Source: a virus (lineage: Duplodnaviria > Heunggongvirae > Uroviricota > Caudoviricetes). Taken from it: a stretch of 17,853 bases of DNA. The position numbers and the translations under genes were made by a program. Each line of letters begins with the position of its first letter. The stretch's first letter is position 1. The notes below the pieces were generated by a model, which did no database searches, was not told the DNA's origin, and saw nothing but the letters and a program-made list of their open reading frames with translations. Location of the stretch: the IMG/VR virus record IMGVR_UViG_2877285697_000004, positions 1-17,853 of that record; one strand, written 5' to 3'. Shown here in pieces: positions 2,130 through 3,445 of this stretch.

Positions 2130-2699
2130 TCATTCCGGATGCTCCTGAGCCACGTTGAAATCGCCATGATCACGACAAGGCATCACAACAAATTCAGGAT
2201 TGCCATACATTGAGTTGATGATGGAATCAAACTGAATTCTGACCGCTTGCCCGTCACCGGAGGGACGTAACTGGACGGGAATAAATTTACGCTCACGACC
2301 AAACATCTTCTCTGGATAACTCAGGTAACCCGACTGGTGCACCGGGTGAGTACAGCGGTCAAACTTTTTCGGAATGATGCGATCCAAATCCGGAAAACAA
2401 CCGTCCACCAGTTTAATGCCGGTAATGGACAGTCGTCGCTGAAACTGGTCGCGATGAACAGCGATCGGCTCTTTACTAAAAATCAGCTCTGTCGTTTCGG
2501 CTTTGGCCGGGACGCCCCCTTCGAACTGGACAATGATGTTTTTCTTCGTCCGGATGCCGTGAGCCATGCGCAGTGCCACGGAACCATTGGTTGCCTCAAT
2601 ATGTTTCGGCGTGATGTGAAGACCGTTCAGGTAATAACGAACGTCGTTTTTAGCAGCGCACACCAGAGCGGCGCGAATAAGTTTTGACTGGATGATCAT
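2130..2699 (-). CDS. DNA polymerase III beta sliding-clamp (DnaN)-like protein, 189 aa; resembles clamp domains II-III only
   Basis: Three colinear motif matches to E. coli DnaN as I recall it: DVRYYLNG(L) followed by ATNGSVALRM (DnaN: DVRYYLNGM...ATDGHRLAV); KLVDGCFPD...R.IPKK (DnaN: KLVDGRFPDYRRVLPKN); and C-terminal FVVMPCRD (DnaN: YVVMPMRL). Start ATG overlaps the stop of the upstream ORF6N gene (ATGA at 2696-2699). Confidence 0.6.
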   Translation of the reverse strand: MIIQSKLIRAALVCAAKNDVRYYLNGLHITPKHIEATNGSVALRMAHGIRTKKNIIVQFEGGVPAKAETTELIFSKEPIAVHRDQFQRRLSITGIKLVDGCFPDLDRIIPKKFDRCTHPVHQSGYLSYPEKMFGRERKFIPVQLRPSGDGQAVRIQFDSIINSMYGNPEFVVMPCRDHGDFNVAQEHPE

Positions 2700-3445
2700 G
2701 CTTTATCCTCCCATCCGATCACCTGGAAAAGCCCCATCTTCGGGTGATACCAGCGTGTGCCGCGTGGTTCAGCCTCTGACATCATTTGGTGGAACGCCGC
2801 CATAAATGGCTCAAGCTCGACGATAGCCCTGCGAGACAACAGACCGTCCGGAGTCATGAATTCGTGGGTGTCTGTAGGAATTTGATATGCGTTCACCAGA
2901 TTCCGACACTTGGCGTCACTCATTCCACTTTTGGCTACCACCTGGCGGTAACCGACATATCCGGCGCGCATTGTGCCGCGTTTGATGTTCTCCACAGCTT
3001 TGGTGACCGTTTCGATCTTCTTTTCAACATGACTCAGGCGCTTTTGCTGGCGAACGGCATCGGCGGCCATTGCAGCGATCATCTCCATTTCCGTCAGCGG
3101 CGCGTGAGTTCGGAAATAGCTGTTAACCAGTTCGCGCTGAACCTGCCAGGCCAGATCGTCGGTGAAGGATTTCACCAACATCAAATAACCGGATTCGACC
3201 AGTACAATTCCTGCTGCTGCAAATTTTGAGAAAGTACCGTCAGGGAGGTGTCGACGAATTTCGTCGGAACCTAATTCGAAGTAGTCTTCCCCTTCAATAA
3301 GACGAGACTTGTTTTCGCGGAAATTGCGTCCCGCTGTTCCGTCCGGGCGTTGGTGCACTTCATCAATCATCGCCAGCGTCACCACGCGCTGACCGCGATA
3401 TTCGATTACCGGAAACTGTTTGTTGTTGATGGTTACAGTATTCAT
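2696..3445 (-). CDS. ORF6N/KilA-N-type phage regulatory (antirepressor-like) protein, about 249 aa
   Basis: N-terminus MNTVTINNKQFPVIEYRGQRVVTLAMIDEVHQRP...RNFRENKSRLIEGEDYFEL matches the ORF6N/KilA-N DNA-binding domain pattern. Start chosen at the ATG at 3443-3445 with a GGAGA RBS, not the upstream track start at 3520. Confidence 0.65.
   Translation of the reverse strand: MNTVTINNKQFPVIEYRGQRVVTLAMIDEVHQRPDGTAGRNFRENKSRLIEGEDYFELGSDEIRRHLPDGTFSKFAAAGIVLVESGYLMLVKSFTDDLAWQVQRELVNSYFRTHAPLTEMEMIAAMAADAVRQQKRLSHVEKKIETVTKAVENIKRGTMRAGYVGYRQVVAKSGMSDAKCRNLVNAYQIPTDTHEFMTPDGLLSRRAIVELEPFMAAFHQMMSEAEPRGTRWYHPKMGLFQVIGWEDKA

Follow-up and report, generated by a model that had tools for sequence, protein, structure and literature searches.

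Why does an intact gene for a putative phage regulator persist in a prophage that has lost its immunity region, and does it act as a unit with the gene that follows it? We addressed this question for the ORF6N-domain gene of IMG/VR virus record IMGVR_UViG_2877285697_000004, a tailed-phage (Caudoviricetes) sequence; the whole 17,853-nucleotide stretch that was analysed is called the window. A first-pass annotation had described an ORF6N/KilA-N-type regulator coupled to a clamp-like gene, considered its retention noteworthy, and suggested that the two genes work as a pair. The explanation we favour, and consider rather probable, is a plainer one: the gene would encode a modular regulator of the Bro network, delayed-early in intact relatives, and would be a passive, recent survivor in this remnant. 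The features of the gene and of its junction with the clamp-like gene are as follows.

3451-3455, minus strand: Shine-Dalgarno sequence GGAGA of the ORF6N gene, read from the sequence.
2696-3445, minus strand: gene for an ORF6N-domain Bro-network protein of 249 residues, defined by open reading frame, Pfam, PHROG, homologue clusters and the ratio of non-synonymous to synonymous substitution rates (dN/dS).
3167-3409, minus strand: ORF6N domain, residues 13-93 (Pfam PF10543).
2981-3091, minus strand: long central helix, residues 119-155, from the secondary structure of the AlphaFold2 (AF2) model; predicted local distance difference test (pLDDT) below 50 for residues 130-158.
2711-2968, minus strand: C-terminal alpha/beta domain of about 90 residues, called C1, residues 160-245 (pLDDT 72-94 in the AF2 model).
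2696-2712, minus strand: predicted translational-coupling junction, with GGGAGGA at 2706-2712 and an ATGA overlap at 2696-2699, read from the sequence.

The reading frame opens with the ATG at 3445 and closes with the TGA at 2696-2698; its full 249 residues are retained, so that the gene is indeed intact. The same start codon is found in RefSeq relatives (WP_001099206.1, 249 residues), which carry the name 'ORF6N domain-containing protein'. A GTG-initiated version of 274 residues was considered and rejected, as it would run into the upstream gene and is used neither by the RefSeq relatives nor by homologues of 246-251 residues. The ORF6N assignment was confirmed by the single Pfam match of the protein (PF10543, E=2.5e-15, 57 bits against a cut-off of 27.8, residues 13-93). 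The ORF6C and KilA-N domains named as further candidates in the first-pass annotation were not found: at E<=0.01 there was no Pfam match to ORF6C (PF10552), KilA-N (PF04383), ANT/KilAC, P22_AR_N/C or AntA, and NCBIfam gave no match to the protein. PHROG 1726, labelled 'anti-repressor', matched over the full length (E=4.8e-67). More than 7,400 homologous clusters were collected, and the median dN/dS of the family, 0.11 over 68 distinct alleles, indicates that it is under purifying selection. Neither Rfam nor tRNA scans returned anything for the window, and the gene therefore does not contain an RNA of the P4-CI type. This is an ordinary, already annotated Bro-network gene of a very large family.

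The Bro network, reportedly delineated by Iyer, Koonin and Aravind in 2002, includes ORF6N, KilA-N, Bro-N, Rha, ANT and P22_AR domains. To place the protein within it we used an AF2 model built from a 39-sequence alignment; a profile search with the C-terminal domain yielded only short fragments of homologues, which served solely to diversify that alignment. In the model, C1 has the element order beta-alpha-alpha-beta-beta-alpha-beta3, with a winged-helix-like topology outside any named family, and its conserved residues include C180, R181, W232, H234, P235, G238 and F240. Proteins with Rha heads and proteins with ORF6N heads have a common sequence from about the central helix onwards, and this helix is probably a coiled-coil linker and the point of domain swapping. 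C1 occurs at high identity behind Rha heads as well, and a homologous domain, C2 (30% identity to C1, E=2e-7), occurs behind Bro-N and Rha heads. Because C1 stands behind Rha heads and a domain homologous to it behind Bro-N heads, the protein has the modular architecture and the domain swapping that have been described for the Bro network (PMC10111431). It shares with other Bro-network ORF6N proteins an ORF6N head scoring above the gathering threshold, exchangeable heads and tails, and a place in the phage early region, and differs from them in a C-terminal domain that is not ORF6C, ANT or another Pfam family.

Genome position accounts for the survival of the gene. We compared the window with RMDEC332, O157 Al Ain, E. 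coli M8 and phages Fraca, CharmingMan and phi467, and in addition with G3/10, which has a Bro-N homologue in the position of the ORF6N gene. In the intact relatives the promoter-distal end of the leftward early operon holds the gene, with xis-int a few genes away and the repressor at a distance of approximately 3-5 kb; none of those examined has it in the immunity region. The homologous prophages found at the yecE (DUF72) site in E. coli RMDEC332 and O157 Al Ain continue past the equivalent of window position 4732 with early-left genes, repressor/cro, replication genes, Q, lysis and head genes. In the window IS600 abuts a truncated tape-measure gene at this point. The immunity, replication, lysis and head genes have thus been removed by an IS600-flanked deletion, which bears out the earlier statement that the immunity region is lost, and the deletion stopped short of the ORF6N gene. 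That the gene is intact without an immunity region is therefore not remarkable, contrary to what had been supposed.

The state of the sequence also argues against special retention. IMG/VR viral contigs of 33-50 kb hold copies with 100% identity to the ORF6N protein, which leaves little time for decay, and the 1,316-nucleotide ORF6N/clamp-like pair differs from that of E. coli RMDEC332 at three positions. With identical or near-identical copies and a recent deletion, an intact 750-bp gene is the null expectation. The adjacent SPFH gene has already acquired a nonsense codon, and this too takes away from the notion that retention of the ORF6N gene is noteworthy. Selection need not be invoked to explain the intact gene, which can be regarded as a passive, recent survivor.

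We propose the following mechanism. The protein would consist of three parts, namely a predicted DNA-binding ORF6N head, a long helical linker and a small winged-helix-like C-terminal domain. Intact lambdoid relatives would express it delayed-early: its gene lies far from the promoter in the leftward (PL-type) operon, immediately before xis and int, and is followed by a variable slot, whose accessory gene is packed tightly against it and probably coupled to it in translation; in the lineage of the window the occupant appears to be a truncated beta-clamp. Its activity would be sequence-specific DNA binding that modulates transcription in lytic growth or after induction, and neutralisation of the phage's own repressor seems a less likely activity. 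The IS600-associated deletion would have taken most of the phage, PL and the immunity region included, stopping approximately 1.3 kb upstream of the ORF6N gene, and with the native promoter lost, expression would occur only by read-through. In a promoter scan of the minus strand from 1300 to 6000, the lone sigma-70-like site was within IS600; upstream of the ORF6N gene none was detected outside that element.

HK022 Roi and the Rha proteins of P22 and phi80 are DNA-binding regulators of the same network. A further precedent is PLE CapR, a DNA-binding regulator within the Bro protein network (PMC8096241). Roi, Rha and CapR are accessory phage or satellite proteins with DNA-binding, transcription-tuning modules, as is predicted for the ORF6N protein, and they differ from it in their head domains, that of CapR being a zinc finger related to T5orf172. 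Literature searches found no direct study of ORF6N function.

Several observations weigh against this explanation. The head of the ORF6N protein was poorly resolved in the AF2 model (pLDDT 26-59), and Foldseek of the model against the PDB gave nothing significant, the best match having E=0.19 among weak winged-helix matches. No informative structural relative of C1 was found by Foldseek against the PDB or BFVD. The PHROG label 'anti-repressor' does not agree with a regulator of another kind, and the clamp-like gene is strongly, if one-sidedly, tied to Bro-network genes; from this association the regulator could have a specific job with its downstream partner. Two other search results had little bearing: the BFVD neighbours of the model were sequence-driven only, and those named 'KilA-N DNA-binding domain' are consistent with a distant relationship only, while the sole match of the protein sequence in the PDB was a spurious coiled-coil.

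A first alternative is an antirepressor function. In this case the protein would act like P22 Ant or a Gifsy antirepressor, binding a CI-type repressor and inactivating it, be it that of its own phage or that of a co-resident prophage, and as a corollary the protein of the remnant could still cross-induce other prophages. The best PHROG families of the protein are all labelled anti-repressor, and the BFVD neighbours include proteins named 'antirepressor'. The Bro-network architecture is also said, after Iyer, Koonin and Aravind in 2002, to be typical of Ant proteins. However, the PHROG label is an annotation and not a test, and the protein lacks the ANT/KilAC, P22_AR_N/C and AntA matches sought above. 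The gene lies outside any immunity or LexA-controlled position and is not part of an immunity or SOS locus matched to a cognate repressor; being at the distal end of an early operon, it would be expressed only after derepression. Among six phages the ORF6N proteins were 77-94% identical, whereas the candidate repressors were unrelated or at most 40% identical. Together with gene position, this conservation across differing repressors speaks against a dedicated antirepressor directed at the CI of its own phage. The likeness to P22 Ant, P1 Ant and the LexA-controlled Gifsy antirepressors is thus one of PHROG annotation class and general modular build, and the differences lie in the missing ANT or P22_AR domain, the locus, and the conservation across phages with differing repressors. 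We consider the antirepressor function unlikely.

A second alternative is that the ORF6N protein and its clamp-like neighbour form an obligate two-protein unit, in which a truncated clamp, here called mini-beta, docks on the regulator, or the regulator controls or delivers mini-beta. Such a unit would echo the use of the sliding clamp for transcription by MuC or by T4 gp33/gp55. The junction of the two genes is tight. The ORF6N stop codon (2696-2698) overlaps the clamp-like start codon (2697-2699) in a 4-nucleotide ATGA, and the Shine-Dalgarno sequence GGGAGGA lies inside the last ORF6N codons (GWEDKA). With this overlap and internal Shine-Dalgarno sequence, and with a neighbour that is truly clamp-like, the coupling noted in the first-pass annotation stands.

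Whether the pair is constant was assessed from both sides. We collected 116 clamp-like loci, or about 111 after removal of two true dnaN genes and three motif-only matches. An open reading frame of at least 150 residues ended no more than 300 nucleotides upstream in 99 of the approximately 111, and 95 of these 99 upstream proteins belonged to the Bro network: 42 ORF6N+C1, 13 Rha+C1, 13 Bro-N+C2, 6 Rha+C2, 11 ORF6N+C4, 7 ORF6N+ANT-like, and three more (two truncated proteins, with a C2 or a C1 tail, and one protein whose head was unrecognised and whose tail was ANT-like). The same 4-nucleotide (+3) overlap was present at 76 of the 99 loci. Five further loci had a Rha, Bro-N, KilA-N or stand-alone ANT gene nearby; the exceptions without a Bro gene were five Klebsiella-type loci and several distant clamp-like homologues. 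These loci share ancestry, so the counts do not represent independent events, and the number of distinct upstream architectures, at least six, is the better measure.

The reverse comparison gave a different result. Of the 80 closest ORF6N loci in IMG/VR, 78 had enough downstream sequence, and only 26 of these had a clamp-like gene downstream, six of them in a shortened form of 119 residues. At least three unrelated genes filled the remaining slots, mainly those for a protein of about 128 residues (25 loci), one of about 118 residues (11) or one of about 145 residues (11). The first of these is phrog_6158, coiled-coil-like, as in phage Fraca (L003 4632-5003), and the others are phrog_37628 and phrog_24826, respectively; these slot proteins (loci L128-L168 and others) are assigned to PHROG families without a known function, and the gene of each directly adjoins the ORF6N stop codon. 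The shortened 119-residue mini-clamp recurs behind ORF6N genes (loci L179-L185) with 95% identity over approximately the C-terminal 109 residues, and this version (P0042) was present on 25 contigs. The pair region was matched in 68 of 5,426 complete E. coli genomes, 52 of which had both genes. Clamp-like homologues at approximately 30% identity (loci L202-L206) had no Bro-network neighbour and lay in replication modules, beside genes for a DnaB-type helicase, primase, DEAD-box helicase, N6 methylase and ParB-like protein, which suggests an ancestral mini-clamp role linked to replication.

Because 95 of about 111 clamp-like loci have a Bro-network gene and only 26 of 78 ORF6N loci a clamp-like gene, and because distant homologues occur in replication modules, the association is real but one-sided and clade-limited. 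The co-occurrence expected of the working pair suggested in the first-pass annotation thus held from the clamp-like side and failed from the ORF6N side; it was not reciprocal, as it would be for a two-gene module, and the regulator does not need the clamp-like gene.

An obligate unit is still favoured by the Bro-network gene lying directly upstream in so many loci, in at least six combinations of N- and C-terminal domains and mostly with ATGA, by KilA-N or ANT genes that adjoin three more divergent members, and by retention of the peptide-binding cleft in mini-beta. MuC, which binds the clamp via clamp-binding motifs (PMC12867686), also speaks for it. Against it, no clamp-like gene accompanies the ORF6N gene in phages Fraca, CharmingMan and phi467 or in the majority of the closest ORF6N loci, and conversely the five Klebsiella-type loci lack a Bro gene and three of the homologues at about 30% identity are in replication modules. 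Four different C-terminal domains occur among the upstream partners, which leaves no single conserved surface for an interaction. Shared ancestry of the loci further lowers the weight of the counts, and tight overlaps are normal in phage operons. We therefore regard an obligate unit as improbable. In enterobacterial lambdoid phages the clamp-like gene has come to occupy the slot that follows Bro-network genes.

The occupant of this slot was characterised in its own right.

2130-2699, minus strand: truncated DnaN 'mini-beta' of 189 residues, corresponding to domain II and the C-terminal half of domain III.

A family profile matched E. coli DnaN in the PDB (E=6e-13, residues 136-293), with a second match at the C-terminus (316-365), and mini-beta aligns to DnaN over approximately 133-252 plus approximately 309-366. 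Its AF2 model had a pLDDT of 89.7, and the top 50 Foldseek matches in the PDB were all beta clamps (probability 1.0, TMq 0.48-0.64); NCBIfam gave only a sub-threshold DnaN match. In the alignment two parts of DnaN have no counterpart in mini-beta, namely domain I and, within domain III, residues ~253-308. These parts contribute the dimer interface of DnaN. A DnaN-type ring is therefore excluded, and the protein does not have the three clamp domains of a head-to-tail dimeric ring, although it does have the clamp fold and the residues of the client-peptide cleft. In this it resembles E. coli DnaN, with which it aligns from about residue 133 to the C-terminus, and it differs in the absent ring interface, in length (189 versus 366 residues) and in being phage-encoded. 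Beta*, the UV-induced internal product of E. coli DnaN, offers a further comparison.

The cleft residues of DnaN correspond to mini-beta as follows: R152, Y153, Y154 and L155 to R21, Y22, Y23 and L24; T172 and G174 to T37 and G39; P242 to P103; R246 to R107; Y323 to Y125; and V360, M362, P363 and R365 to V171, M173, P174 and R176. These residues belong to the cleft to which clamp-binding motifs bind. The window protein has Ser at the position of H175, where His is present in 89% of the family. Roles have been described for DnaN His175, Asn320, Met362, Pro363, Met364 and Arg365 (PMC6511837). In an exhaustive search the mini-beta family comprised more than 150 clusters (50% identity); its full-length members have approximately 165-215 residues, and the family-wide dN/dS is 0.07. 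Over 141 clusters, with 18-47% identity to the window protein, cleft positions made up 11 of the 20 most conserved columns, and their mean conservation was 0.68 compared to 0.36 elsewhere (Mann-Whitney p=2.5e-7), a difference that is inflated to the extent that the profile search itself favours those columns. The family has no Pfam family of its own, and its PHROG 3007 label, 'RusA-like Holliday junction resolvase', appears to be wrong.

A plausible function for mini-beta would be that of a soluble decoy or adaptor for host clamp clients. Candidate clients would be Pol III alpha/delta, Hda, MutS/L, translesion polymerases and RecBCD. T4 provides a precedent for regulation through a clamp surface. 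Mu MuC is another (PMC12867686). Both MuC and T4 gp45-gp33/gp55 link a phage regulator to a sliding-clamp surface, and both differ from the present case in using a complete ring clamp loaded on DNA, whereas mini-beta cannot form a ring. Literature searches found no direct study of truncated or phage-encoded clamps. The fuller proposal, of a large, unnamed family of ring-incompetent, cleft-only mini-betas that serve as decoys or adaptors for host clamp-binding proteins and that, in enterobacterial lambdoid phages, are wired to a Bro-network regulator such as the ORF6N protein and so tie early phage regulation to the host replisome and repair hub, is offered as a tentative one that we would at present rather doubt.

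The remainder of the remnant shows further damage, and its features are listed below in window order.

1-1314, minus strand: integrase, at the end of the leftward operon (Pfam, PHROG).
1370-1606, minus strand: DUF1233 excisionase, at the end of the leftward operon (Pfam, PHROG).
1764-2042, minus strand: DUF4222 gene.
3489-4319, minus strand: SPFH/Band-7 lipoprotein gene upstream of the ORF6N gene, inactivated; Pfam Band_7 on both halves.
4316-4504, minus strand: gene for a 62-residue membrane protein.
4733-5996, minus strand: IS600 (IS3 family), at the deletion boundary.
5971-6825, plus strand: 5'-deleted tape-measure gene, matching only the C-terminal part of the PHROG 6747/1716/24 profiles.

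Directly after IS600, the plus strand encodes only the C-terminal 284 residues of the tape-measure protein. Tail genes M, L, K, I and J come next, and Lom and tail-fibre genes lie beyond them. The SPFH gene is a single pseudogene with a nonsense codon (CAG to TAG at 3852-3854, compared to E. coli RMDEC332); a frameshift and a division into two genes were both ruled out. Gene J (9200-13983, plus strand) is interrupted at approximately 10080-11400 by an IS4-family (IS10-like) DDE transposase, which is in frame with the 5' part of J, and J residues resume at 11389.

In the window IS600 follows position 4732. Its site in the closest E. coli relatives (L001 18507-19770) is a different one, some 230 bp closer to the ORF6N gene, and intact early genes come after it there. 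IS600 has therefore struck the region independently or has moved, with the large deletion associated only with the window copy. The IS600/tape-measure junction of the window was absent from all complete E. coli genomes, and the locus of S. flexneri SFBU1023 was just 94% identical to the window.

At the tail-fibre end of the remnant, an IpaH-type effector gene (16729-17853, minus strand; Pfam NEL E3-ligase, E=2.5e-77) runs off the end of the window. The NEL E3 ligase points to a Shigella or enteroinvasive E. coli background, and the effector gene may be the reason for the persistence of the remnant. The weakest explanation for the ORF6N gene, and one we give very little credence, is domestication for a benefit to the host, such as regulating host or ipaH genes or excluding other phages: the gene is intact beside broken neighbours and the remnant carries an effector gene presumably needed by the host, but int, xis and several tail genes are intact too, survival of so short a gene after a recent deletion is expected by default, the protein is identical to the viral-contig copies, the sequence of the gene pair differs little from that of RMDEC332, the native promoter has been deleted with no substitute detected, and PADLOC defence models matched none of the ORF6N, clamp-like, DUF4222 and 62-residue protein genes or the two SPFH halves.

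Taken alone, the ORF6N gene adds little: RefSeq already annotates it, its family is very large, and its survival needs no special explanation. It does call for caution where Bro-network genes lying towards xis-int in lambdoid early operons bear the label 'anti-repressor', which is not supported by position or by co-variation with the repressor. What is added is the description of a variable accessory-gene slot directly behind these Bro-network genes, and of one occupant as a truncated DnaN in which the cleft is kept and the ring is not. The most interesting product therefore lies just outside 2696-3445, in a family of cleft-retaining, ring-incompetent mini-betas. If mini-clamps sequester or redirect host clamp clients, they would represent a new phage route to manipulate replication and repair and, if this is true, a natural probe for the clamp interactome.

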